30,774 nucleotides of DNA, from the IMG/VR virus record IMGVR_UViG_2609459790_000004, one strand, 5' to 3'. Positions 2,705-28,936 of the stretch are shown here, piece by piece. Origin of the DNA: a virus. Its lineage: Duplodnaviria > Heunggongvirae > Uroviricota > Caudoviricetes. The notes below the pieces were generated by a model, which saw nothing but the letters and a program-made list of their open reading frames with translations, was not told the origin of the DNA and ran no database searches. A program made the position numbers and the translations under genes. Every line of letters begins with the position of its first letter. Positions within the stretch are counted from its first letter, which is position 1.

Positions 2705-3676
2705 ATGATCCGCCCGTTCATCAAATGGGCAGGGGGTAAAACCCGTGTCCTCCCTGACCTGCTGCCGCATCTTCCTAAAGCCGACTGCCTGATCGAACCG
2801 TTCGTAGGCGGCGCATCGGTATTTCTGGCGACTGAATACCGCCGCTATGTGCTGGCTGATATCAACCCGGATCTTATTAACCTGTATCGGGAAGTCACCC
2901 GTTACCCGGACTTAGTGATCGATGCGGCCCGCGAACTGTTCAACAGCAAGAATAGCCCGCAGGGGTACAACGAAGTCCGAGCCGCGTTCAATAAGCAGGT
3001 AGGTACGGTAAAAAGCGGTGGGTTGCGTTATGGCGTAGAAATGGCGTGCATCATGCGCGCTGCTCAATTCCTGTATCTGAATCGCCACGGTTATAACGGC
3101 TTATGCCGCTACAGTCGTAAGACCGGCTTTAACGTGCCGTTTGGCAAGTATAAGAGCGTCTACTTTCCTGAAAATGAAATCCGCCTGTTTGCAGAAAAGG
3201 CCAACAATACAAAGGCAATATTTCTTTGCGCGCCGTTCCAGCGTTCTCTACAGGTCGTCACGGGTGGCGATGTTCTCGTTTACTGCGATCCGCCTTACCT
3301 GCCTGAAGGCAAAACAGCCGATTTTACCAAATACCACACCGAACCATTCACGGAAGACAACCACCGCCAGTTAGTCCAGGCACTGCTGGAAGTTAACCGT
3401 AAGCATGGCGTGAAGGTCGTCATTTCCAACAGCGACACCGAAGCCACCCGCGCGATTTATCAGCCCTTCAAGATGCACGAAATCAGCGTGCAACGTTCCA
3501 TCAGCACCGACAAAGACAACCGCCAGAAGGCCAAAGAAGTGATCGGCGTGCTGCCTGTCTGCGACTGCTGCGGGCGTTACGGCGGCGGTTGCCCTGATTG
3601 TGGCGCCGTGATGGGTGATGCGACTTACAACGCGATGGTTGCGGCGGGCACGTCTGACGATCTGGAGGCTTTTTAA
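2705..3676 (+). CDS. dam: orphan DNA adenine (N6) methyltransferase, Dam family, with Cys-rich C-terminal tail
   Basis: FIKWAGGK, EPFVGGASVF, LYLNRHGYNGLCRY and DPPY motifs match the Dam family; preferred start ATG 2705 (RBS ACGGAG) rather than track start 2651, which overlaps the upstream ORF. Confidence 0.9.
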   Translation: MIRPFIKWAGGKTRVLPDLLPHLPKADCLIEPFVGGASVFLATEYRRYVLADINPDLINLYREVTRYPDLVIDAARELFNSKNSPQGYNEVRAAFNKQVGTVKSGGLRYGVEMACIMRAAQFLYLNRHGYNGLCRYSRKTGFNVPFGKYKSVYFPENEIRLFAEKANNTKAIFLCAPFQRSLQVVTGGDVLVYCDPPYLPEGKTADFTKYHTEPFTEDNHRQLVQALLEVNRKHGVKVVISNSDTEATRAIYQPFKMHEISVQRSISTDKDNRQKAKEVIGVLPVCDCCGRYGGGCPDCGAVMGDATYNAMVAAGTSDDLEAF

Positions 3677-9636: not shown

Positions 9637-9682
9637 GGCAACAGGCTATCGCGCTCGCGCGCGCAACAATATCGCCGCTTGT

Positions 9683-9700
9683 TGTCGCCTGAGTCCGACA
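9683..9700. promoter_or_regulatory. Ogr/Delta-type late-promoter dyad TGT-N12-ACA (candidate PO activator site)
   Basis: TGTcgcctgagtccgACA in the P/O divergent intergenic region, ~100 bp upstream of O start. Confidence 0.5.
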
Positions 9701-9789
9701 AAGTGAAGGCTTTGCGCCTTCCTGCTGCAAAGGGAATGATTGGGGCACTGGTTAATATCAATCGCTTACCAACCCGGAGCTTTGTCACC

Positions 9790-10635
9790 ATGCCAATGAC
9801 AAATTTTTTCCGCGTCGCAGTCGAAGGCGCAACCTGTGATGGCCGCGTGCTGGAACGTCAGCACATTATCGAAATGGCCGAGCAGTACGATCCCCAGGTC
9901 TATGGCGCCCGCGTCAATCTGGAACACATTTTAGGCTGGTCTCCAAACAGTGATTTTCGTGCTTACGGCGACGTTGCTGAAACGAAATATGAAGAAATCG
10001 CCGAAGGCCAGTTAAAGGGCAAGTTGGCGCTTTTGGTGAAGGTGGACGCCACGGATGAACTGGTCGAACTGAAGAAGAAACGCCAGAAAATCTACCATAG
10101 CATTGAGGTGCATCCGTCCTTTGCTGACACCGGCAAAGCCTACCTTATGGGGCTGGCCTGTACCGATAACCCGGCGAGCCTGGGCACCGAAATGATGAAG
10201 TTTTGCACCCAGAACGCCAGCGCCAACCCACTGGCCGCGCGTCACTATGCACCTGAATGCTTCTTCACTGAAACCCTGGAATCGTCACTTGAATTCGCGC
10301 AGGAAGAGCCGCCAGCGTCCGACACCGGGAAGAATTTCTTTTCCCGTATCAAGGAAATGCTGACCGGAACCCGCCAGCACTTCGATCGTGAAAATGGTGA
10401 TATTCGCCAGGCGGTTGAACTGGTAGCGGAAAGCCAGGGTGAATTGCTGGACAAGATGGAAAAACTGAGCGCAGGGCAGCTTAAGAACAAACAGACCGCC
10501 GAAGCGGTGGATAAGTTGCGCTCTGAGTTCGACGAGATGAAAGCGCAGCTTTCTACCCAGGACGCCAGCAAATACCGCCGCCCGGAAGCGACCGGCGCAA
10601 CTGAAAAATCTAACGCCCAGCTTGCTGACTGCTGA
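9790..10635 (+). CDS. O: capsid scaffolding protein (P2 gpO-like)
   Basis: Start ATG 9790 (MPMTNFFRVAVEGATCDGRV... resembles P2 O N-terminus); the track ORF from 9313 is an upstream extension overlapping P antisense. Confidence 0.85.
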   Translation: MPMTNFFRVAVEGATCDGRVLERQHIIEMAEQYDPQVYGARVNLEHILGWSPNSDFRAYGDVAETKYEEIAEGQLKGKLALLVKVDATDELVELKKKRQKIYHSIEVHPSFADTGKAYLMGLACTDNPASLGTEMMKFCTQNASANPLAARHYAPECFFTETLESSLEFAQEEPPASDTGKNFFSRIKEMLTGTRQHFDRENGDIRQAVELVAESQGELLDKMEKLSAGQLKNKQTAEAVDKLRSEFDEMKAQLSTQDASKYRRPEATGATEKSNAQLADC

Positions 10636-14182: not shown

Positions 14183-14228
14183 AACTGTGCTGGCCGTGCG
14201 TATCGAGCGCGGTCATTTTTGACAGTGC
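14183..14228 (+). repeat. 46-bp terminator-like hairpin element, copy 1 (paralog of 21634-21679)
   Basis: 85% identity (39/46) with copy 2; contains a 9-bp GC-rich stem (14191-14199 / 14207-14215) followed by T5; sits 9 bp after K stop. Confidence 0.5.
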
Positions 14229-14249
14229 GAGCTGGCGAGAGGTTTAGTG

Positions 14250-15880: not shown

Positions 15881-15898
15881 TGTCACCAACCCGCCACA
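15881..15898. promoter_or_regulatory. Ogr/Delta-type late-promoter dyad TGT-N12-ACA (candidate PV)
   Basis: TGTcaccaacccgccACA immediately after S stop, upstream of V. Confidence 0.5.
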
Positions 15899-16036
15899 AT
15901 GGCGCCGCGTTGTTTGCGCGCGCGCGACTCCTGATACTGACTGCATAACCCAAAAGCCGAAACGGTCGTAAAGCCTGCTACCGGGTGGAAGCGACGCCGG
16001 ACAGCGTAACCGGCACCACGGGAAACAGTCAGCACT

Positions 16037-18540: not shown

Positions 18541-20023
18541 ATATTATGCCGTGCTAACCAATGTGGGCGCGGCGAAACTGGCAAATGCCACGGCATTGGG
18601 TGCGCAGGTTGAAATCACCCAGATGGCTGTAGGCGATGGTAACGGCGTGTTGCCGACGCCGAACCCGGCACAAACGGCGCTGGTTCATGAGCTGCGCCGC
18701 AAGCCGCTTAATAGTCTGAGCATTGACCCGAATAACGCCAACCAGATTATTGCCGAGCAGGTGATACCTGAAGACGAGGGCGGGTGGTGGATCCGTGAAA
18801 TCGGTTTATTCGATAAAGACGGCGATATGATTGCCGTAGCCAACTGTGCGGAAACGTATAAGCCGCAGTTACAGGAGGGAAGCGGGCGCGTACAGGTTGT
18901 ACGCATGATCCTGATTGTCAGCAGCACCGCTGCCGTAACGCTGAAAATTGACCCTTCGGTAGTTCTGGCAACCCGACAGTATGTTGATGATCAGATCATC
19001 CAGGTGAAAAGCTATGTTGATCAGAAAATGGCAGCGCATGTAGCTGCGGCTGATCCGCATAAACAATACGCACCAAAAGAAAGTCCCGCTCTTACTGGCA
19101 GGCCGACTGCGCCAACGGCGGAAGGCAAAGATAGTTCTACTCAAATTGCAAATACAGCTTTCGTTCAGGCTGCTATTGCTGCTTTGGTTGGCTCTTCGCC
19201 TGAAGCGCTGGATACGCTGAATGAACTTGCTGCGGCTTTGGGTAATGATCCTAACTTTGCTACCACCGTAACAAATTCACTCGCTGGAAAGATGGATAAA
19301 TCGGCAAATGGTTCAGACATAGAAAACGTTTCTGTTTTTCTACAAAACCTTGGTTTGGGAGATGCGAGCGGATACGTTGGTAGGCTGCTAAAAATACAGG
19401 TATTCACTGCCAGCGGGACAGTGACAAAAACGCCAGGCGCAAAAAAATGGCGAATTAAATGTCTCGGGGCGGGGGCCGGTAGTTCAGCTGCACCGGCAAC
19501 GGGTAGTAACGAGGTTTCCGTGAGTAACGGGGGCGGCGCAGGGGCATATGCTGAGGGCATTTATGACGTATCGTCAATAACAACGGCGTCAGTCGTCATC
19601 GGTTCCGGCGGTGCAGGAGGAACGGCGGGTTCAATATACGGCGCGGACGGCGGAACTAGCTCAGTTGGTTCGTTTATTTCATCGCCCGGTGGGAAAGCTG
19701 GATTACCCGCCGGACCGGCAACCCCACCATTTCAGCCCGTGGCCAATAGTAACAGCGATAGCTCGACTGGGTGGAATATTGTCGGCTCATCTGGAGCAGG
19801 GGCAGAACCAGCCGTAGCTGTTGCAAATAGCTATGCCGTTGGCTCGCGTGGTTCAAATAGTATATTTGGGGTAGGCGGAGCAACTCCTGCAATGAATAGC
19901 CCGGCAAATACCGGTGGTGGCTATGGTTCTGGAGCATCAGGCTGCTCGAATGGCCCATCTCAACCAACTAAATCAGGCGCAGCGGGACGCCCGGGAATCG
20001 TAATCATTGAGGAGCTGGCATAA
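18530..20023 (+). CDS. H: tail fibre protein (P2 gpH-like) with constant N-terminal part and invertible, glycine-rich variable C-terminal part (current orientation)
   Basis: N-terminus ..YYAVLTNVGAAKLANATALG..MAVGDGNG resembles P2 H; preferred start GTG 18530 (GGAG RBS 7 nt upstream), track start TTG 18509; the C-terminal ~220 aa lie inside the invertible segment. Confidence 0.85.
   Translation: MATKYYAVLTNVGAAKLANATALGAQVEITQMAVGDGNGVLPTPNPAQTALVHELRRKPLNSLSIDPNNANQIIAEQVIPEDEGGWWIREIGLFDKDGDMIAVANCAETYKPQLQEGSGRVQVVRMILIVSSTAAVTLKIDPSVVLATRQYVDDQIIQVKSYVDQKMAAHVAAADPHKQYAPKESPALTGRPTAPTAEGKDSSTQIANTAFVQAAIAALVGSSPEALDTLNELAAALGNDPNFATTVTNSLAGKMDKSANGSDIENVSVFLQNLGLGDASGYVGRLLKIQVFTASGTVTKTPGAKKWRIKCLGAGAGSSAAPATGSNEVSVSNGGGAGAYAEGIYDVSSITTASVVIGSGGAGGTAGSIYGADGGTSSVGSFISSPGGKAGLPAGPATPPFQPVANSNSDSSTGWNIVGSSGAGAEPAVAVANSYAVGSRGSNSIFGVGGATPAMNSPANTGGGYGSGASGCSNGPSQPTKSGAAGRPGIVIIEELA
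19338..19363. promoter_or_regulatory. hix/gix/cix-like 26-bp recombination site (left), inside gene H
   Basis: TTCTACAAAACC TT GGTTTGGGAGAT; 20-bp inverted repeat with the right site (19/20 identical); resembles the hixL consensus recalled from memory. Confidence 0.6.
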
Positions 20024-20220
20024 TGAGTAATTATGCGATAGTTAAAAATGGCGTCGTTGAAAATGTTGTTGTATGGGACGGGATTGGTAATATTTTCGAC
20101 AATTATATAGTGGTAAATATTGAAAATATAAATGCAGGAATAGGCTGGTTGTATGACGGAGAGGCTTTTACCCCTCCGTCTGAGCTTACGCCTACACCAC
20201 CGGGAAATCAGGCCAGTTAA
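20023..20220 (+). CDS. small hypothetical protein (65 aa) downstream of H in the expressed orientation; possible tail-fibre chaperone
   Basis: ATG overlapping H stop (TAATG); AT-rich; function inferred only from position. Confidence 0.45.
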   Translation: MSNYAIVKNGVVENVVVWDGIGNIFDNYIVVNIENINAGIGWLYDGEAFTPPSELTPTPPGNQAS

Positions 20221-20599
20221 TATCTGGCGCAGTGCTGGTATCAATTACCTGCACTGCGTCGATATAGTCCAGCACTGCGTTTAACCGCGTAGTTTCTGCA
20301 TCAGTCAGCATACGCCCTGCCAGCAATTTCATTTGCAGCACACTAATTGACTGCATTGCTGAATCTATCAGCGACTGTTTTTTCTGCTCGCCTCTCGCAA
20401 CTTCTTCTTCACGCGTCAAACCGATGGGCTCTTGCAATACCGGGTGACCATCATTTCCAGCGGAAATTATTTTTCCATTGGCCTGACCGTCAAACAGCCG
20501 GTGATATTCATCTGAGCTAATTTCTATAGCGTTATCTGGAATGTGGTTATTTAATCCGTCAATATAAAATGCACCATCTAAAAAATAATATTTCATCAT
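20192..20599 (-). CDS. tail fibre assembly protein (Tfa/gpG/Mu U-like), alternative-orientation copy
   Basis: N-terminus MMKYYFLDGAFY and C-terminus ..DAVQVIDTSTAPDINWPDFPVV match the conserved tail-fibre-assembly family ends; ATG overlaps the stop of the alternative fibre segment. Confidence 0.8.
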   Translation of the reverse strand: MMKYYFLDGAFYIDGLNNHIPDNAIEISSDEYHRLFDGQANGKIISAGNDGHPVLQEPIGLTREEEVARGEQKKQSLIDSAMQSISVLQMKLLAGRMLTDAETTRLNAVLDYIDAVQVIDTSTAPDINWPDFPVV

Positions 20600-20982
20600 T
20601 TACCCCACGCGAATACGATGCATCCTGCATTTTCTACTGCTGAAATTTGTGATCCGTTATCTACCCTGCATATTGCCTGAACGCCTGTTTTAGTGAGCGT
20701 ACTCAGTTGTATTGCCCATGTATTGGAAATTCCTGCACCCCAGGCATACGGATTACGCTCTATCACAACAGCGCCCAGGCCGAAAACATCAAAACTGGCA
20801 GGAAAAACAACGTCCGCAGCACCGCCAGAATTTGTATTCCCCAGTACCCACATGATTTTAAAACCCCCAGGGAATCGCGCCACACCGGGCATGTTTAGTG
20901 TTGATGCAAAACTGGACATATCAGGAATCTGATTTGCGCCGGTGCCGACGTTGCGGCGCGACGCTGTACCCAGATCTCCCAA
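20596..20982 (-). CDS. alternative tail-fibre C-terminal segment (silent in this orientation; fuses to H constant part after inversion)
   Basis: No ATG of its own (track start is TTG within the right hix site); after inversion at the 2-bp cores the H frame reads ..QNLGLGD-LGTASRRNVG.. continuously into this ORF. Confidence 0.7.
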   Translation of the reverse strand: MGDLGTASRRNVGTGANQIPDMSSFASTLNMPGVARFPGGFKIMWVLGNTNSGGAADVVFPASFDVFGLGAVVIERNPYAWGAGISNTWAIQLSTLTKTGVQAICRVDNGSQISAVENAGCIVFAWGK

Positions 20983-20999
20983 ACCAACGTTTTTGAAAA
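20974..20999. promoter_or_regulatory. hix/gix/cix-like 26-bp recombination site (right)
   Basis: ATCTCCCAAACC AA CGTTTTTGAAAA; inverted repeat of the left site; strong match to the hix consensus as recalled. Confidence 0.6.
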
Positions 21000-21053: not shown

Positions 21054-21635
21054 ATGCTTATTGGATATGTACGCGTATCAACAAATGACCAGAACACGGC
21101 TTTGCAACGTGATGCGCTGGAGCGGTCAGGATGTGAGCTTATTTTTGAAGATAAAATGAGCGGTAAAACAGCAGAAAGACCGGGGCTTAAAAAATTACTA
21201 AAGCGCCTTTCTCCAGAAGATACGCTTGTTGTCTGGAAGCTGGATCGTCTTGGGCGGAGTATGCGGAACTTGGTCATTCTGGTGGAGGAACTAAAGCAAC
21301 GTTCCGTGAACTTCCGCAGCCTGACTGACAGTATTGATACCTCAACACCAATGGGGCGTTTCTTTTTTCATGTTATGGGAGCACTGGCAGAGATGGAGAG
21401 AGAATTGATTGTCGAGCGTACGCGTGCAGGACTGGTGGCCGCTCGCGCGCAGGGAAGGATCGGCGGTAGACGTCCAAAACTAACACCAGAACAATGGGCG
21501 CAGGCGGGTAGGTTAATAGCGGCAGGGGAATCGCGCCGGAGGGTTGCCATAATTTATGATGTTGGGATATCTACGCTTTACAAAAAATTCCCAGCGACCA
21601 GAGATAAGAATTCCGGCACGCATGGCCGGTTATAA
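21054..21635 (+). CDS. serine recombinase, Hin/Gin/Cin/Pin-family DNA invertase
   Basis: 193-aa ORF; GYVRVSTNDQ (catalytic Ser region), TLVVWKLDRLGRS, MGRFFFHVMGALAEMERELIVERT and C-terminal HTH are near-identical in pattern to Hin/Gin. Confidence 0.95.
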   Translation: MLIGYVRVSTNDQNTALQRDALERSGCELIFEDKMSGKTAERPGLKKLLKRLSPEDTLVVWKLDRLGRSMRNLVILVEELKQRSVNFRSLTDSIDTSTPMGRFFFHVMGALAEMERELIVERTRAGLVAARAQGRIGGRRPKLTPEQWAQAGRLIAAGESRRRVAIIYDVGISTLYKKFPATRDKNSGTHGRL

Positions 21636-21679
21636 CCGTGCTGGCCGTGTGTATCGAGTACGGTCACTTTTAACGGTGC
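21634..21679 (+). repeat. 46-bp terminator-like hairpin element, copy 2 (paralog of 14183-14228)
   Basis: Overlaps invertase stop codon; stem 21642-21650 / 21658-21666 followed by T4; three stem differences from copy 1 all preserve pairing. Confidence 0.5.
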
Positions 21680-21741
21680 TGTAGCACGGTCAGTTATGGT
21701 GGTGTATTACGGAAGACGAAGCAGGCAATGGCCCGCTTTTC

Positions 21742-22191
21742 TTATATCGAAAGGTTGGTTTTCACCAGAGAGAAGAGATCGTCGGTGGTGGTTTCAGCCA
21801 GCTTTTCCCGTATGTCCTCGCTTACCCGTTTCAGGTTGAGCGTGAAATCAATTTTCTTTGCCTTCCCGTCCTTAAAAAACTCCGTCCGGTTTTGCGTGAT
21901 CTGCTCAATTACATACATGCCGTAGATCCTGCCCGTGCCTTCTATCAGGGGCCACGGGCGCCCGGAAAAAGCCATAGTTTCCAGCATGACAAGCGACACA
22001 TCACCGCCGCTTATTTCGGGGTACAGCGTGCCGCTGAGTACGAACGGTTCTTCATCTGCGCCGATGAACTGATAGCGCGGGGATTTCCCCACGCGATCGT
22101 TTTTGACGTGCCGCCAGGAGTTGGTTTTATTCGCACTCTGGTAAGGTGTGGTTTGCAGTGAAAAGGGGAACATCCCCAGAATCATCATCAT
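21742..22191 (-). CDS. U: tail protein U (P2 gpU-like)
   Basis: 149-aa ORF immediately downstream of the tape-measure gene on the minus strand; position and size as P2 U. Confidence 0.8.
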   Translation of the reverse strand: MMMILGMFPFSLQTTPYQSANKTNSWRHVKNDRVGKSPRYQFIGADEEPFVLSGTLYPEISGGDVSLVMLETMAFSGRPWPLIEGTGRIYGMYVIEQITQNRTEFFKDGKAKKIDFTLNLKRVSEDIREKLAETTTDDLFSLVKTNLSI

Positions 22192-22200
22192 GATATTGCC

Positions 22201-25146
22201 TTAGACGTGATCGGTCAGTTGGGAGCGCTTGCGCCGGTCGGCCTGTTGCTTCGCTAACGCAAGTTCTTCGCGCACGCGCCTGATAATGGTTTCTTCATCC
22301 AGTTTCTGGCCGCTAAAGTCGAAGTTAAGGTTATATACATCGCCACCCGGAGCAGGCATCAGCGCAGCGACGGAAGCCGCAGACGGAGACGCAGAAACAG
22401 GCATCCGTGCGGCGGGCTTCTCAACCTGCCAAGGCGTAACGGAAGCGATCAGCGATCCGGCCTGCTGCGTCACCCAATCGGTAAGGGATGGTAGCTGGCG
22501 CTGCGCCTGCTTAAGCGGTTCCGAATATCCGCCACGGATCGGGATATAGGGCTGCTTATTCTTGAAGACAATTTCGCCGGGGCCGTCTTTCTTCTCCGTG
22601 GTATTGGTGGCGATCTTGTCCAGGCTGTTGCTCATCTTCGGCACGATGTTGGCCGGGCCTTTGAGCGAGTTAATTAAGCTTTCCTGCTTTTTCTGCTGGT
22701 CAATGGCCTGCTGTTGCTTCTGGTTGGTTTTCTTCTGCTGATCGTCTTTCGGCGACCAGTTCCAACCCTTTTTAACCATTTTCTTTTGCTGCGGATCCCA
22801 CTCCCAGACAACAGGGTCTTTGTGCATACTTTCCGCAGCTTGCTGCGCTGCTTTTGTTGCGTCGGGGATGGCGCCGAGTTTCTCAAGTATCCATCCAATC
22901 CCGTTAGCGACGGCTTGAATAGGTAGCGTCAGCGCGCTGATTGCGGCCCCTACAACCTTGCCGAACGTTTCCCCGGCACTGGTGCAGGATGCCAGCGCTT
23001 CACTGGAAAACTGGATCGGTTCCAGCAGTTTGGTAAACCATTCCCAGACCCCACTGATCGCGTTGCCGATACTGTCAAAAATCGGGGCCAGTGGTGCAAA
23101 TACGGCGTTAAATGCCTGCGTGATTGGTTGAAGGCCAGTCATCAGGCCGGTAAAGAAGCCGCTGAAAAACGCCTGTATGGGTTGCCAGAATTTAATGACG
23201 GCCACTGCTGCCGCAGCAAAGAGCGCAATCAGCCCCCAGACGGGCGCAGAAATACCAGCCAGTAGAGTAATAAGCGGGCCGAATACCATGCGACCGGCGC
23301 TTAATAATGCCTGCATAGGCGAGCCAGCAAGCCACTGGAACGCACCACCCAGGCGCATTACTCCGCCAGTCAGCCGCGCTATTCCTCCTTCCCCGGCCAG
23401 CGTGGTGAAGCTGAGGCGAACAAGTGCCATCGGGCCCAGCACTGCGCCGATGGACAGCATCAGGCCACCCACGACAACCAGCAACGCGCCTATGGCTGCG
23501 GTGACTTTCATGATTGAACCAACCAGCGCCGGGTTTGCCTCAACCCAACGCCGGACGCTGCCAACCACCTTACTGACGGTAAGCATGATATCCATCAGCG
23601 GTTCGCGGAGCGTTTCCCCTGCTGAACTGAATGCGTTAACCGCGCCGGTTTTGGTCAGTTGCCACTGAGCAGAAAGGGAGTCTTTATTGATATCGGATTC
23701 CCGATTCATGGAACCTTTAGCGGCAGCACCCTGCGTCAGTTCGATCTGGCGCCGAAGTTCGGGCAGGTTGTTCGCAAGTTTCTGTGCATCATCCCCGAAC
23801 TCTTTACCGAAAATCTGGGTAAGGTTGGCTACCTGCTTATCTGGTGCAAGTTTTTTGGACGCTTCCAGCACTGAAATGATCGTGCCCATCGCGTCCACTG
23901 ACATGCTTTTCTGGACTTTCTCAGCATTGACGCCGATCTCATCCAGAGCACCCAAAAATTTATCGCTTTGTACTGTGGCGATCGACAGTTCACGCACCAT
24001 TGCATTGGTGGCGCTGGCTGCAACTTCGGCAGGTGATCCAAGCGTCAGAAAGGTGGAGCCCAGCGCGGCGGCTTGCTTGTAATCCAGTTGGCTGGCAAGC
24101 CCGCCAACGCGCTGGAGCACGTCGATAATATCGGAGCCTTTCGACTTCGCGTTATCGTCCAGGTAGTTTATGGCGTCGCCCAACTGTTCAATATTCTGGG
24201 TAGGGATTTTATACAGCCCGGCAATCTTACCGAGACTTTCAGAAAGCTGATCGGCGGGCAGTTCAAAGGCTACCGAAGCCTTTGCCGCCATGCTGGCAAA
24301 AGCCAGCAGATCGGCTTTTTGCTTTTGCCACGGATCATTGCTGTTTGCGACGCCCATACGCGCGCCACCTTCGACCAGTGCGGCATAGTCAACAGCACCG
24401 TTTGCCATTGGCAGCTTTTCGCTGGCATCCATGATCGCCCGCTGCATTTCTTCATATTGCGGGGTGCGGTTGCCGCTGTCGTCACGCAAGCCGTTTACCT
24501 GTTTGGCTACGCCCTTCATTGCGTCTTCAAGGCTGCTGTAGGATTTAACCGCAGCGGCGACAGGTGCTAGGGTTGCCGCCCCTACTGCGGCGGTTTTCAT
24601 CCCCCCGCTCATCATCTTTTCGCCGGTTTCTTTGGCGCGGCTGTAACGGGCCTGCGCCTGGTTAACAGCGTCAAGCCGTCGCTGCTGTTCGGCAAGCTGG
24701 CGGTTGTATTGCGCGGTGCGCTGGTTGATCTGTTCCGTCGCCCGGCTGGCGCTGCTGATCGCAATGCCTTCGCTGTAGAAGCTGGCCCGCAACTGGTTAA
24801 GCTGTGTCTGCTCGCCTTTCTGCTGCTGGGTTAACTGGCGAATGGCTGCACGTTGCTGATTGAGGGCGGCAACCTGTTCGGCGCTGCGCTGGCGTAACGG
24901 GCCATAGGCCGCCGCCATTTGCCGGGCCTGTTCTTTCGCCTGGGCCAGTTGTTCGGTGGTTTTTTTATTGGCTGCGGTGAGGCGGTCAAAGCTGGTTGCC
25001 TGACGCTCAAGCCCTTTAATGCTGGTTTTAGTCTGGTTGATTTGAGACGCCAACGCGGCGGCACTCTGGCGCGCCGCGTTGACAGGGCGGGACATATTAT
25101 TCAGGGCGCTGAATGCCACCCTGATATTTAAATTGCGGTCTGCCAT
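22201..25146 (-). CDS. T: tail tape measure protein (P2 gpT-like)
   Basis: 981-aa ORF with long Ala/Gln-rich coiled-coil and hydrophobic segments typical of tape-measure proteins. Confidence 0.9.
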   Translation of the reverse strand: MADRNLNIRVAFSALNNMSRPVNAARQSAAALASQINQTKTSIKGLERQATSFDRLTAANKKTTEQLAQAKEQARQMAAAYGPLRQRSAEQVAALNQQRAAIRQLTQQQKGEQTQLNQLRASFYSEGIAISSASRATEQINQRTAQYNRQLAEQQRRLDAVNQAQARYSRAKETGEKMMSGGMKTAAVGAATLAPVAAAVKSYSSLEDAMKGVAKQVNGLRDDSGNRTPQYEEMQRAIMDASEKLPMANGAVDYAALVEGGARMGVANSNDPWQKQKADLLAFASMAAKASVAFELPADQLSESLGKIAGLYKIPTQNIEQLGDAINYLDDNAKSKGSDIIDVLQRVGGLASQLDYKQAAALGSTFLTLGSPAEVAASATNAMVRELSIATVQSDKFLGALDEIGVNAEKVQKSMSVDAMGTIISVLEASKKLAPDKQVANLTQIFGKEFGDDAQKLANNLPELRRQIELTQGAAAKGSMNRESDINKDSLSAQWQLTKTGAVNAFSSAGETLREPLMDIMLTVSKVVGSVRRWVEANPALVGSIMKVTAAIGALLVVVGGLMLSIGAVLGPMALVRLSFTTLAGEGGIARLTGGVMRLGGAFQWLAGSPMQALLSAGRMVFGPLITLLAGISAPVWGLIALFAAAAVAVIKFWQPIQAFFSGFFTGLMTGLQPITQAFNAVFAPLAPIFDSIGNAISGVWEWFTKLLEPIQFSSEALASCTSAGETFGKVVGAAISALTLPIQAVANGIGWILEKLGAIPDATKAAQQAAESMHKDPVVWEWDPQQKKMVKKGWNWSPKDDQQKKTNQKQQQAIDQQKKQESLINSLKGPANIVPKMSNSLDKIATNTTEKKDGPGEIVFKNKQPYIPIRGGYSEPLKQAQRQLPSLTDWVTQQAGSLIASVTPWQVEKPAARMPVSASPSAASVAALMPAPGGDVYNLNFDFSGQKLDEETIIRRVREELALAKQQADRRKRSQLTDHV

Positions 25147-25607
25147 TTAGTGATCTCCACCACTGCGCGCAGCCGCCTGATCACGCCATAACAGTATTTC
25201 CTGTACCGTCATGGCGTCCATCTCTACCGGCCGCCAGTGGAATATGACGGCGATATCTGCCATCAGGTCTTCTATGCGTTCGCAGGGGCATCGGATGATT
25301 CGTTGCCCGTATCCGTCGCGGTCAGATCCGAAGAGGGTTGCAAAAAATCAACCACCGCGTTGGCTAGCTGGCAAAAATCCCAGGTATCCATACGGGCAAT
25401 CTCATCGGCGGTTAGTGCCGGAGCGGTAACGCGGGGCAGCAGAATAACCAGCGCGTCATAGTTGGAAGTCAGCACGTCATAGGCTTTTAAGCCGCGCAGT
25501 GATCCAGCCTGTTTAAGCACGGAAGTGATCGCCACTTCGGTGATTTTGGTCTTACCGCGCGTAATAGGGGCGGTAAGAATAACGGTGTTTTCTTTGGTCT
25601 TGCTCAT
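25147..25607 (-). CDS. E+E' -1 programmed-frameshift product (tail assembly chaperone long form)
   Basis: Slippery site T TTT TTG at 25347..25341 (minus strand); hand translation of the -1 frame gives a 64-codon open extension ending at TAA 25149-25147 that overlaps the T start codon, as in P2 E/E'. Confidence 0.6.
25272..25607 (-). CDS. E: tail assembly chaperone E (P2 gpE-like)
   Basis: 111-aa ORF between FII and T; contains slippery heptamer TTTTTTG near its 3' end. Confidence 0.75.
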   Translation of the reverse strand: MSKTKENTVILTAPITRGKTKITEVAITSVLKQAGSLRGLKAYDVLTSNYDALVILLPRVTAPALTADEIARMDTWDFCQLANAVVDFLQPSSDLTATDTGNESSDAPANA

Positions 25608-25621
25608 GGTGCCGGGTTTCC

Positions 25622-26137
25622 TTATAGGCCGATGTTAGCGCGGTGTTTTTCCAGCACATCCACACCGGCAACTTTGTAGATCATGTTGAGCACATCAACT
25701 TCGATAATCTCTTCGCCGTTGATGGTCAGCTTGTAATAGGTGTTTTTCAGGGTGTACTTATGCGAAGTGTCATCCCCGACTTTTGCCGAACCGGGATCCA
25801 GTTCAGTGAAGCGGCCACGCGTCTGGATTTCGCACGGTACAGCGTCGCCGGTTGCGTCGTCCTGATAGGAGCCAGCAAAACGTGTTTGCATCCCGTCCGC
25901 AGTGGTAACGCCCCATTTTTTCAGCAATCCGGCATCCAGACCGCCAAGCGTGATATCCATATCCAGGGCGCCAGCGTCGAAGCCAAGATCCACCGCAACC
26001 GAACCCGGCATACCACCCGCCTGGTAGTCTTCGGTTTTTTTTGTGAGTTTGGCGGGGGGGATTTCCGGCACCATGCCGAAGTAGTTATCCCCGTCAAAGA
26101 ACATATTGAAATATTTGAGTTTCTTAGGCAGTGCCAT
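25622..26137 (-). CDS. FII: tail tube protein (P2 gpFII-like)
   Basis: 171-aa ORF following the sheath gene; order and size as P2 FII. Confidence 0.9.
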   Translation of the reverse strand: MALPKKLKYFNMFFDGDNYFGMVPEIPPAKLTKKTEDYQAGGMPGSVAVDLGFDAGALDMDITLGGLDAGLLKKWGVTTADGMQTRFAGSYQDDATGDAVPCEIQTRGRFTELDPGSAKVGDDTSHKYTLKNTYYKLTINGEEIIEVDVLNMIYKVAGVDVLEKHRANIGL

Positions 26138-26149
26138 AAGCGCCCCCGG

Positions 26150-27343
26150 TTAGTTATTCACTGCGCTGGAAAACGTAGCGAAATATTCGTCGGTGAACTC
26201 CTGTACCAGGCTGAGATTTTCCAGCGGTGGAACAGGGGTGTAGTTGTACTTAATGGTCAGTTGACCATTGCGCAGGGTTTCCGAGGTATTCGGTTCCGGG
26301 TCATACCAGCAGCTGGCGCCCAGCAGCTTGCCAGCCGTCACATATGAGGTCAGCTTCTTATTGATGCCGTCCACAATGTCCTTAACCAGCGACGGGGTAA
26401 GCGGTTTATCAACATAGGCGAAATGGGCTTCGGCGACGGTATCCGCAACGATCTGCGCGGTTCGGGTATAGCTTTCGAAGATATACGTTTCCGCGTCGCA
26501 GGTACGCGATCCCCAGATGCGGTAGCCGTCCTGCTTGATCAGCGTGGTAACGCCTGCTGCGTTCAGTTCGTCGGCGTCGGTATCGGTGCCCTGCAACGTG
26601 AAATAGATATCCCGATCCATCCCCAGCACGTTATTAACGGGCACGTTGGAAATGGTTTTATGCCAGCCCTGCGTTGCGTCGATTTTGGCTCGCATCCCAA
26701 CAGCATGGGCACCCACGGGCACGGTGGCATTAGCCCCGGCGTTGGTGTCGTAGCAGATGAAATTAGGCCAGATAACCATCATTTCACGCTGGGAGAATTG
26801 CTCGCGGTATTCCTTCACTTCGGCGATTGTGTTGCAACCGTTCGCTGCCACGTAAGCAAACGCGCGCAGCTTTTCGGCAATGACGCCGAGTTGTGCGGCT
26901 ACCGCTTCCGTATCAAGCCCTGGAACAGCCAGTACACGCGGGCGCACACCTACGCGCATTTCGGCAGACAGCAGCGCGTACATGCCGGTAAAGCGCCCGT
27001 TTGCATCGGTGCCGCCAATAACCAGTTGATCCTGGGTCTGTGCGGTGCCGCCTTCTGGCGGTTCGATATTTGCAGCATCAGCAACGCGGATCACAATGGT
27101 TTGCGGGCTGGTCTGGTCTGAAATCGCTTTCAGGGTGGTAAACAGGGTGCCGGTTTTACCTGCCTTGCCCAGCATGTTAGCCACGCGGGTAATCAGTACA
27201 GGGGTATCCAGCGGGAACGCTGTTTCGTCCGCATCATCAGCGGTGCAGACAACGCCGATCACCGCCGAATCAATGTCGGTGATCATCGTGCTAAGGTCGG
27301 TGGTTTCCGTGACGGTTACACCGTGATGGTAGTTAGTGGCCAT
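26150..27343 (-). CDS. FI: tail sheath protein (P2 gpFI-like)
   Basis: 397-aa ORF; N-terminus MATNYHHGVTVTE resembles P2 FI (..YHHGV..); GAGG RBS. Confidence 0.9.
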   Translation of the reverse strand: MATNYHHGVTVTETTDLSTMITDIDSAVIGVVCTADDADETAFPLDTPVLITRVANMLGKAGKTGTLFTTLKAISDQTSPQTIVIRVADAANIEPPEGGTAQTQDQLVIGGTDANGRFTGMYALLSAEMRVGVRPRVLAVPGLDTEAVAAQLGVIAEKLRAFAYVAANGCNTIAEVKEYREQFSQREMMVIWPNFICYDTNAGANATVPVGAHAVGMRAKIDATQGWHKTISNVPVNNVLGMDRDIYFTLQGTDTDADELNAAGVTTLIKQDGYRIWGSRTCDAETYIFESYTRTAQIVADTVAEAHFAYVDKPLTPSLVKDIVDGINKKLTSYVTAGKLLGASCWYDPEPNTSETLRNGQLTIKYNYTPVPPLENLSLVQEFTDEYFATFSSAVNN

Positions 27344-27415
27344 GTATTTGCCTCGCCAGTTTAATGACTGCGAATATCATTGCGGCAATGGCGGGCCGAT
27401 GCGATGGATAAGGGT

Positions 27416-27433
27416 TGTCAGCAACCTGCAACA
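27416..27433. promoter_or_regulatory. Ogr/Delta-type dyad TGT-N12-ACA between divergent FI and D (candidate shared PF/PD activator site)
   Basis: TGTcagcaacctgcaACA; the only such dyad in the 157-bp FI-D intergenic region, 73 bp from FI start and 68 bp from D start. Confidence 0.5.
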
Positions 27434-27500
27434 ATGACGGGGCGTTGTTCATGCGCGCGCGCGTGGCGACGATGTACCCCATCATGATGAAGGGGTTGAT

Positions 27501-28619
27501 ATGGACACGACAGAAAACCGATATTCGCCGCGCCCGGCGTTCAGTATTGAGATTGAAGGTAAGCAGCTTACGGCGCTGGATAACCGGCTGATCTCCCTTT
27601 CCCTGACAGATAACCGGGGCTTTGAAGCGGACACGCTGGATCTGACTCTGGATGATGCAGACGGGCAGGTAGCCTTACCATCACGCGGCGCAAAGATATC
27701 GGTGGCGCTGGGCTGGGATAATGATCCATTGGTTTTTAAGGGCGTGTATACGGTTGACGAGATCGGACACTCTGGCCCGCCTGACCAGCTAACGATCAGT
27801 GCCAGAAGCGCAGATTTCCGCGATACCTTTAACGTGAAGAGGGAATATAGCTGGCACGATATTACCGTGGGGGATGTGGTTGCCAGCATTGCCAGCCGTT
27901 ACGATCTGCGTGCGGGCGTCAGCGAAGAACTGGCGAAGATTGAGATAGATCACGCCGATCAGACGAGTGAATCAGATATCAGCTTCTTAACGCGCATGGC
28001 CGAAATGCTGGGCGCGGTGGCAACCATTAAAAACGGTATGCTTCTGTTTATCACGCCGGGCAAGGGAGTAACGCAGAGCGGCAAGCCGCTGCCGGTGATC
28101 GAGATAGTCCGGTCAAGCGGTGATAAACATCGGTTTAACGTAGCTGACCGCGACGCGTACACGGGCGTAACTGCATACTGGCTTGATCTCAACTTTGGCA
28201 AGAAACCATCCACTACCGTGAAGAAAACCACCCGCAGGCGACGAACCAGCCAGGCCAAAAAGAAAGAACCCGCATCAAGCAAAAAAGAAGGGGATTATCT
28301 GGCCGGGGCCGAAGGCAACGTTTTTGTTATCCGTAAAACCTTCAAGACGGAAAAGGCGGCGAAGCGGGCCGCTGCGGCTAAGTGGCGGGAGTTGCAGCGT
28401 GGAGCGGCGACGTTCAGCATCACCCTGGCGCGTGGCCGCGCGGATTTGTACCCGGAACAGCCCGCCAGCGTCTACGGCTTTAAGTCCACGATCGACAGTG
28501 GGAACTGGACGATAACGCGGTGCGTTCACGATATTGGCGGGGGAGGGTTTACCACATCGCTGGAACTGGAAGTAAAAATCGACGACTGGACAGCGGAGAG
28601 TGACGATTCAACGTCTTAA
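27501..28619 (+). CDS. D: tail protein D (P2 gpD-like)
   Basis: 372-aa ORF; ATG 27501 with GAAGGGG RBS; size and position as P2 D. Confidence 0.9.
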   Translation: MDTTENRYSPRPAFSIEIEGKQLTALDNRLISLSLTDNRGFEADTLDLTLDDADGQVALPSRGAKISVALGWDNDPLVFKGVYTVDEIGHSGPPDQLTISARSADFRDTFNVKREYSWHDITVGDVVASIASRYDLRAGVSEELAKIEIDHADQTSESDISFLTRMAEMLGAVATIKNGMLLFITPGKGVTQSGKPLPVIEIVRSSGDKHRFNVADRDAYTGVTAYWLDLNFGKKPSTTVKKTTRRRRTSQAKKKEPASSKKEGDYLAGAEGNVFVIRKTFKTEKAAKRAAAAKWRELQRGAATFSITLARGRADLYPEQPASVYGFKSTIDSGNWTITRCVHDIGGGGFTTSLELEVKIDDWTAESDDSTS

Positions 28620-28667
28620 GCGTTATACTTGCGTTGATATTAACCAGTCCTGAAAGGAGGCCCGCGT

Positions 28668-28910
28668 ATGGCAATGCGCTGTCCTCGCTGCCGTGCAATA
28701 GCAAAAACCAGAACCAGCGTTGAGCTGAGTTTGCTTGTACGGCGCAGCTATCACCAGTGTCAAAATATGTTGTGCGGGTACTGTTTCACCAGCATGACGG
28801 AAATAGACGGTTCACTAAATCAGACCCAGCCAGCGCCCGGCGCGATGGTGCCACAAGAAGCTTTTCCACGAAGTCACCACGGCGAAGATCAGTTATCGCT
28901 GGCATTATAA
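28668..28910 (+). CDS. ogr: Ogr/Delta-family zinc-finger late transcription activator
   Basis: 80-aa ORF with CPRC...YHQCQNMLCGYCF Cys4 motif matching Ogr; AAGGAGG RBS. Confidence 0.85.
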   Translation: MAMRCPRCRAIAKTRTSVELSLLVRRSYHQCQNMLCGYCFTSMTEIDGSLNQTQPAPGAMVPQEAFPRSHHGEDQLSLAL

Positions 28911-28912
28911 AA

Positions 28913-28933
28913 GCGGCCCCTAAATGGGGCCGT
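28913..28933. terminator. candidate bidirectional intrinsic terminator between convergent ogr and the membrane-protein gene
   Basis: Stem GCGGCCCC / GGGGCCGT with 5-nt loop; T-rich on the plus strand after the stem and U-rich after it on the minus strand. Confidence 0.45.
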
Positions 28934-28936
28934 TAT

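Follow-up and report, generated by a model that had tools for sequence, protein, structure and literature searches.

The tail genes FI, FII, E, T and U of a P2-like phage, encoded on a 30,774-nucleotide stretch of Caudoviricetes DNA (IMG/VR record IMGVR_UViG_2609459790_000004; hereafter the window), lie on the strand opposite to that of the neighboring late genes, and they are separated from the divergent baseplate gene D by a short gap with a single candidate site for an Ogr-family activator of late transcription. This inversion is the standard layout of the clade to which the phage belongs, and the FI-D gap probably forms a two-way late promoter built on one Ogr operator. The single activator site in the gap most likely drives both FI and D.

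Gene content and orientation of the tail block

Gene calls based on Pfam place the inverted operon on the minus strand, from 27343 down to 21742, convergent with a serine invertase gene, and D and ogr on the plus strand, as described by a first-pass annotation made from the sequence alone. The operon begins with the tail sheath protein gpFI (26150..27343; PF04984, PF17482, and PF22671), continues with the tail tube protein gpFII (25622..26137; PF04985, E = 5.7e-60), the tail assembly chaperone gpE (25272-25607, or 25147..25607 for E plus E'; PF10109, E = 7.9e-05) and the tape measure protein gpT (22201..25146; PF10145, E = 4e-21), and ends with the tail protein gpU (21742..22191; PF06995, E = 4.7e-39). 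On the plus strand, the baseplate hub protein gpD (27501..28619; PF05954), which is 99.5% identical to D of Salmonella phage SEN5, heads a late unit of its own and is followed by an Ogr-family late activator (28668..28910; PF04606, E = 1.5e-13), the translation of which contains a CX2CX22CX4C zinc-finger motif; the phage encodes a cognate-type C4 activator. The P2-type contractile-tail module is complete. Pfam scores for FI, FII, T, U, and D are above the curated cut-offs, and the gpE match, at 23.1 bits, is slightly below its 25-bit cut-off; its position is as expected and the frameshift signal is present. This signal is a T TTT TTG slippery heptamer at 25347(−) in the correct X XXY YYZ register, and the −1 frame remains open as far as about 25147, at the start of T. 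E' is a predicted −1 frameshift extension of gpE, and an equivalent E' coding sequence is annotated in SEN5.

The P2 reference record annotates FI-FII-E-E'-T-U-D as a single F operon under the promoter pF, reading in the same direction as V-G, and the FI-U block of the window is therefore inverted relative to P2, in agreement with the first-pass annotation. The canonical co-directional order is absent: the strand of FI..U is opposite to that of both V..H and D. The window operon resembles the P2 F operon in its genes, their internal order and the E/E' frameshift signal. It differs in being inverted as a block, with D detached from it, and its transcripts would converge on the tail-fiber and invertase region, which in P2 they follow. 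In both phages ogr lies downstream of D and is followed by a terminator; in P2 a single terminator is annotated for the ogr transcript and the F operon, and in the window ogr has a promoter-like match of its own.

Distribution of the inverted layout among relatives

Salmonella phages SEN4 and SEN5 (Senquatrovirus) have the same V..H(+), U..FI(−), D-ogr(+) arrangement, with DNA 94% identical over the block; they have no invertase, and a macro-domain gene takes its place. To survey prophages, the D protein was scanned against one genome per bacterial species. Of 52 loci returned, 46 carry both FI and D, and FI(−) and D(+) are divergent and adjacent in all 46. These loci come from more than 20 genera of Enterobacterales: Salmonella, Citrobacter, Hafnia, Enterobacter, Pectobacterium, Photorhabdus, Xenorhabdus, Yersinia, Providencia, Morganella, Brenneria, Symbiopectobacterium, Serratia, Klebsiella, Mixta, Erwinia, Pantoea, Kosakonia, Izhakiella, Edwardsiella, and Trabulsiella. 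The lowest D identity among the prophage loci with the inverted layout is 61%. In a phage collection, 49 records have a D identity of 60% or more; the positions of both FI and D were checked in 37 of them, and the two genes are divergent in 37/37, with no exceptions. The divergent records include KSP20, phiT5282H (Novemvirus), 3LV2017 (Reginaelenavirus), ST16-OXA48phi5.4 (Reipivirus), Chuche, PhiR44_2, and P88 (Xuanwuvirus). The full order V-W-J-I-H(+) / U-T-E-FII-FI(−) / D-ogr(+) is found in SEN5, PhiR44_2, and P88, and coliphage P88 also has the fiber segment as well as an invertase gene oriented convergently to U.

Relatives whose D identity is 56% or less keep the P2 order, in which FI and D share a strand: SEN8 and SopEPhi (Felsduovirus, the Fels-2 group; D approximately 55% identical), P2, and three Ralstonia phages. 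ENT90 has this order too. The U gene abuts D or overlaps it in SEN8, SopEPhi, and P2. By gene-order comparison, the inverted tail block is a derived, fixed trait of one large P2-like (Peduoviridae) clade of Enterobacterales, the verified members of which include Senquatrovirus, Xuanwuvirus, Reginaelenavirus, Reipivirus, and Novemvirus as well as many prophages. The first-pass annotation had implied that the orientation was a peculiarity of this phage and had set comparison with relatives beforehand as the test. That implication does not hold, because SEN4/SEN5, P88, 3LV2017, ST16-OXA48phi5.4, phiT5282H, KSP20, and 46/46 prophage loci share the layout; the orientation is routine in related phages and is a lineage trait. 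Many annotated phage genomes already show this gene order without comment, and in the literature on SEN4/SEN5, P88, and xenorhabdicin we found no mention of the inversion.

The same comparison bears on the possibility that faulty assembly or scaffolding of the window produced the orientation, for which nothing speaks beyond the departure from P2. Independent genomes refute this explanation, since the junctions of the window are found again in complete phage genomes and in closed chromosomes that many laboratories have contributed, and we regard it as extremely improbable.

Four loci of the survey, L043 (Yersinia ruckeri), L044 (Erwinia amylovora), L047, and L050, keep D alone, often truncated and usually with ogr, and lack the FI-to-U block; in L043, V adjoins the truncated D. 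From their gene content they look like decayed prophage remnants.

The serine invertase and the fiber segment

The serine invertase gene (21054-21635, plus strand; Pfam match) adjoins the tail block and is convergent with U, which raises the question of whether FI-U is a programmed invertible segment, the window representing one of its two states. Beyond the adjacency of the gene, the evidence is contrary. A search for inverted repeats between 21636-21741 and 27344-27500 found no pair joining the boundaries of the block, in keeping with the first-pass annotation, which had seen no convincing hix-like sites there; the block is not an invertase substrate. The sole hix-like inverted repeat pair (19344-19363 and 20974-20993, 95% complementary) lies inside gene H and brackets the variable end of this fiber gene together with assembly genes, so that the invertase has sites of its own around the tail-fiber segment. 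SEN4/SEN5 and most of the prophage loci have the same FI-U orientation without an invertase match, the opposite state is found in 0/46 clade loci, and a flip would part FI from its promoter. With no flanking repeats, a separate substrate for the invertase and an invariant orientation, inversion of FI-U by the invertase was rejected, and the chance that it accounts for the layout appears negligible.

The fiber segment resembles the Gin/Hin/Cin/Pin systems (Mu G, P1 C, e14 P), which likewise combine a serine invertase with hix-like inverted crossover sites. In the window, as in those systems, the sites lie inside H, and an alternative H C-terminus (20596-20982, minus strand) and a fiber assembly gene (20192-20599, minus strand) are encoded on the opposite strand of the invertible segment. 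The window system covers 19344-20993 only, and the orientation of FI-U is not explained by it. P88 shares this module, and SEN4/SEN5 lack it.

A single conserved operator in the FI-D gap

The FI-D gap (27344-27500, 157 bp) contains exactly one TGT-N12-ACA, the predicted Ogr-type operator TGTCAGCAACCTGCAACA at 27416..27433, with its center at 27424.5. From this center the FI ATG is 81.5 nt away and the D ATG 76.5 nt, so that the first-pass description of one dyad roughly equidistant from both start codons was accurate. The significance of the dyad comes from its placement, its conservation and a fixed geometry relative to flanking −10 elements, not from the frequency of the motif.

We aligned 42 distinct FI-D gaps, including 21 divergent representatives with approximately 44% pairwise identity. 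A single 18-bp operator occupies the same alignment column in all 42, with the half-sites kept and the inner 12 nt variable. In all 23 gaps with the exact dyad, the distance from operator to FI ATG is 78.5-85.5 nt (mostly 80.5-83.5). Conserved columns are few in the 21 representatives and fall into three groups: the operator half-sites; A2, A5, and T6 of the FI-side −10; and, on the D side, a TTG, a CGCGCGCGC tract and a −10-like hexamer.

The operator takes several forms. TGT-N12-ACA is found in 23 gaps, including that of SEN5, the dyad of which is identical to that of the window. The Xuanwuvirus-like group (L020-L040, L060) has TCT-N12-ACA, and in P88 (L060) the form TCT-N12-ACAACAAAA occurs in the P-O gap as well as in the FI-D gap, with the operators at 14216-14233 and 33255-33272. 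In the Providencia loci (L014, L015, L042) the operator is TCTC-N10-GAGA, both half-sites having changed together. Variants that track lineages in this way suggest that the operator has co-evolved with the Ogr-family activator and that an asymmetric site is tolerated.

In SEN5 a small hypothetical protein, SEN5_27 (equivalent to window 27333-27485, minus strand), is annotated across the FI-D gap, and a similar one is annotated in PhiR44_2. A small protein gene at this position was rejected as the open frame is not conserved in relatives; a call of the SEN5_27 type is probably spurious and lies over the promoter region.

Predicted core promoters for FI and D

A −10-like hexamer was sought as NANNNT, which matches 5% of window positions as background. 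It is found, mostly as NANNAT, exactly 34 nt beyond either end of the operator: on the FI side in 42/42 gaps, and on the D side in 39/42, with two more at 35 nt. In the window, the predicted pFI −10 is AATGAT (27376..27381, minus strand), 34 nt beyond the dyad, and the predicted pD core (27445..27473, plus strand) consists of a −35-like TTGTTC (27445-27450), a 17-nt spacer containing a (GC)5G tract (27453-27463), and a −10-like GACGAT (27468-27473). Each −10 begins 43.5 bp from the dyad center. If the usual 7 nt separate −10 and start, transcription would start at approximately 27369 for pFI and 27480 for pD, 111 bp apart and each 55.5 bp from the center, the leaders would be approximately 26 nt (pFI) and 21 nt (pD), and good ribosome-binding sites follow. 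The gap holds what would be expected of a two-way pair, i.e., a single operator between divergent late genes and two symmetric outward-facing core promoters.

The geometry recurs at the other predicted late promoters of the window. Upstream of V, the predicted pV has a dyad at 15881-15898 and a −10 GATACT at 15933-15938; pO and pP share one dyad at 9683-9700, with −10 elements AATGAT at 9735-9740 (pO) and TAGCCT at 9648-9643 (pP). The 34-nt rule is obeyed at pV, pO, and pP, and it breaks down at the two TGT-N12-ACA matches inside genes and on the non-coding flank of the pV dyad. Throughout the 30.8-kb window, GCGCGCGCG tracts are present only in the pP, pV, and pD arms, where alternating (GC)n tracts occupy the spacers (9656-9664, 15916-15926, and 27453-27463, respectively), a restriction that groups pD with the other late promoters. 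The (GC)n tract of the D arm is conserved in nearly all aligned relatives and is absent from the pO and pFI arms. pD and pV also have a common layout of dyad, TTGTT, 17-nt (CG)n spacer, and −10, both in the window and in the divergent locus L006. The idea that pD arose when pV was recently duplicated is not supported: because the resemblance recurs in L006 with lineage-specific sequence, it points to a shared promoter design.

A direct precedent for such a pair is annotated in P2 itself. In record NC_001895 one activator site (3057-3087, "activator binding site; pO, pP promoters") lies between the annotated starts of the P operon (3016) and the O operon (3127), which are 111 bp apart, and the −10 elements TAGCCT and GAAACT, read from the sequence, begin 44 and 43 bp from the site center. 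The P2 pP/pO region thus resembles pFI/pD in having one site between divergent late operons and starts separated by 111 bp, annotated in P2 and predicted in the window, and the same design is found in the window's own P-O gap (dyad 9683-9700). The pFI/pD pair differs in its genome location and in that it would drive FI..U and D-ogr instead of P-Q and O and the genes that follow it. The operator forms differ as well, an exact TGT-N12-ACA in the window and TGT-N12-CCA at the P2 pP/pO site. The distance of 55.5 bp from operator center to start on both sides, as in the P2 annotation, applies in the window to predicted starts only. Ogr binds inverted repeats centered near −55 and requires RNA polymerase's alpha subunit (PMC3152322), and PP' and PO' of phage Smp131 were assigned the same dyad (PMC3931495). 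The proposal of the first-pass annotation that one site may serve two divergent late promoters therefore fits all of the comparative evidence and the geometry of P2 pP/pO; as a design it is not new in principle, P2 pO/pP being the precedent.

Does the operator serve D as well as FI?

An alternative is that the dyad serves pFI only, as the counterpart of P2 pF, and that D is expressed independently of Ogr, for example from a weak constitutive promoter in the gap. The distance from operator center to FI ATG is close to that of P2 pF (81.5 versus 83 nt), the D-side −10 GACGAT is weak, and a generic sigma-70-like match faces D at 27353-27380, though such matches occur at chance level. Set against this are the NANNNT at the same 34-nt offset on the D side in 39/42 gaps despite approximately 44% identity, the TTG and (CG)n tract of the D side, which have no counterpart in the window outside pV and pP, and the reproduction by the two arms of the annotated P2 pP/pO spacing. 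Moreover, D is an essential tail protein for which late expression is needed. We consider an Ogr-independent D unlikely, at well below even odds, and favor activation of both FI and D from the one operator.

Several points nevertheless count against a shared operator. The bare TGT-N12-ACA motif is no commoner in the window than chance predicts (5 matches versus 5.6 expected), and the 42 gaps are phylogenetically related and hence are not 42 independent trials, despite their high sequence turnover. The operator of the Xuanwuvirus-like group is an imperfect dyad, with TCT as its FI-side half-site. Besides the weakness of the pD −10, all of the start sites are predicted, for the window phage and clade members alike, and in the literature we found no paper on the FI-D promoter pair. 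Lastly, read-through from D into ogr is deduced solely from the 48-nt gap between the two genes, in which no terminator was predicted.

Probable terminators and the ogr promoter-like match

The 106-bp convergent gap between the invertase gene and U contains a hairpin (21719..21738) that adjoins the U stop codon and is followed on the plus strand by TTTCTTAT. The minus strand of 21630-21745 has a predicted fold of −31.9 kcal/mol (z = −3.1), and the hairpin was not called by a simple terminator scan. It is likely, from this structure and position, a terminator where the V/invertase and FI-U transcripts meet. The D-ogr unit ends at a predicted two-way intrinsic terminator (28912..28934), the stem of which is 9 bp long and includes 7 GC pairs; both strands carry T-runs. 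Ahead of ogr, a sigma-70-like match, GTGACG-18-TATACT (28600..28629, plus strand), is a consensus match only, in a region with 7 such matches versus 5.5 expected; it sits at the position of P2's own ogr promoter, the −35 and −10 signals of which are annotated between D and ogr.

Observations at the P-O gap and in Xuanwuvirus-like phages

The predicted pP −10, TAGCCT, is identical to that of P2 pP, and the predicted start falls on the A of the ATG (9636) of P, the terminase large subunit gene. Either the P mRNA would be leaderless or the true P start would lie further in; the window P protein is 20 amino acids shorter than P2 gpP, about 6 of these at the N-terminus. The start of the scaffold gene O annotated in SEN5 (equivalent to window 9736) is upstream of the predicted pO start at approximately 9747. 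Alignment with P2 gpO favors the ATG at 9790 as the real O start, and the O start in the reference records is probably an annotation error.

P88 differs from the window not only in its operator but also in having no separate pV. In Xuanwuvirus-like phages V overlaps S (P88, L060, 20208-20211; PhiR44_2, L055, 311-314). From this arrangement, their O operon appears to run on through the fiber genes, and two two-way operator regions would control all late genes.

Discussion

We propose that, in an ancestor of the clade, a segment carrying the F promoter together with FI-FII-E/E'-T-U was inverted once and became fixed, and that D and ogr stayed on the original strand. An Ogr-family activator bound at 27416-27433 would lie approximately 55 bp upstream of two outward-facing core promoters and, by analogy with P2, would bring in RNA polymerase on either side by way of its alpha subunit. 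From pFI, FI to U would be transcribed leftwards, toward the hairpin at 21719-21738. From pD, D would be transcribed rightwards, with transcripts reading into ogr and stopping at the terminator at 28912-28934. D-ogr would then remain a late, self-reinforcing unit that keeps the positive feedback on ogr provided in P2 by transcription from pF.

On this comparison pD would be an innovation tied to the inversion, because phages with the P2 order have no promoter before D, the U stop codon overlapping or abutting the D start; in P2 itself the two overlap. Recombination between two palindromic operators as the route of the inversion is not supported. An orphan dyad would be expected beyond the 3' end of U, and TGT-N12-ACA occurs within 400 nt beyond that end in only 1/46 loci.

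More speculatively, the symmetry of the operator could have made the inversion viable, with the (CG)n difference setting the ratio of expression of the two arms from a single bound activator; we put this forward tentatively and think it rather less probable than not. When pF flipped with FI-U, the other face of its operator may have come to lie before D, so that only a core promoter had to arise. The old F operon may in this way have been split into a high-output FI..U arm and a short D-ogr arm that tightens the late feedback on ogr. The (CG)n spacer is found in the arms for low-copy products (pP, pV, and pD) and is absent from those for abundant products (pO and pFI).

The layout corrects the impression of a rearranged phage: the P2 gene order is not universal in the Peduoviridae, and the inverted one is also that of several prophage-like loci of Xenorhabdus and Photorhabdus. 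Probable start-codon and spurious open reading frame errors in the SEN4/SEN5 reference annotations are flagged as a by-product. The predicted pFI/pD pair would be a further instance, in a new position, of the known P2 pP/pO design, and a natural second example of one upstream activator site feeding two divergent promoters. For a widespread clade it provides a testable promoter map, in which three operators would serve five late promoters, four of them arranged as two two-way pairs.

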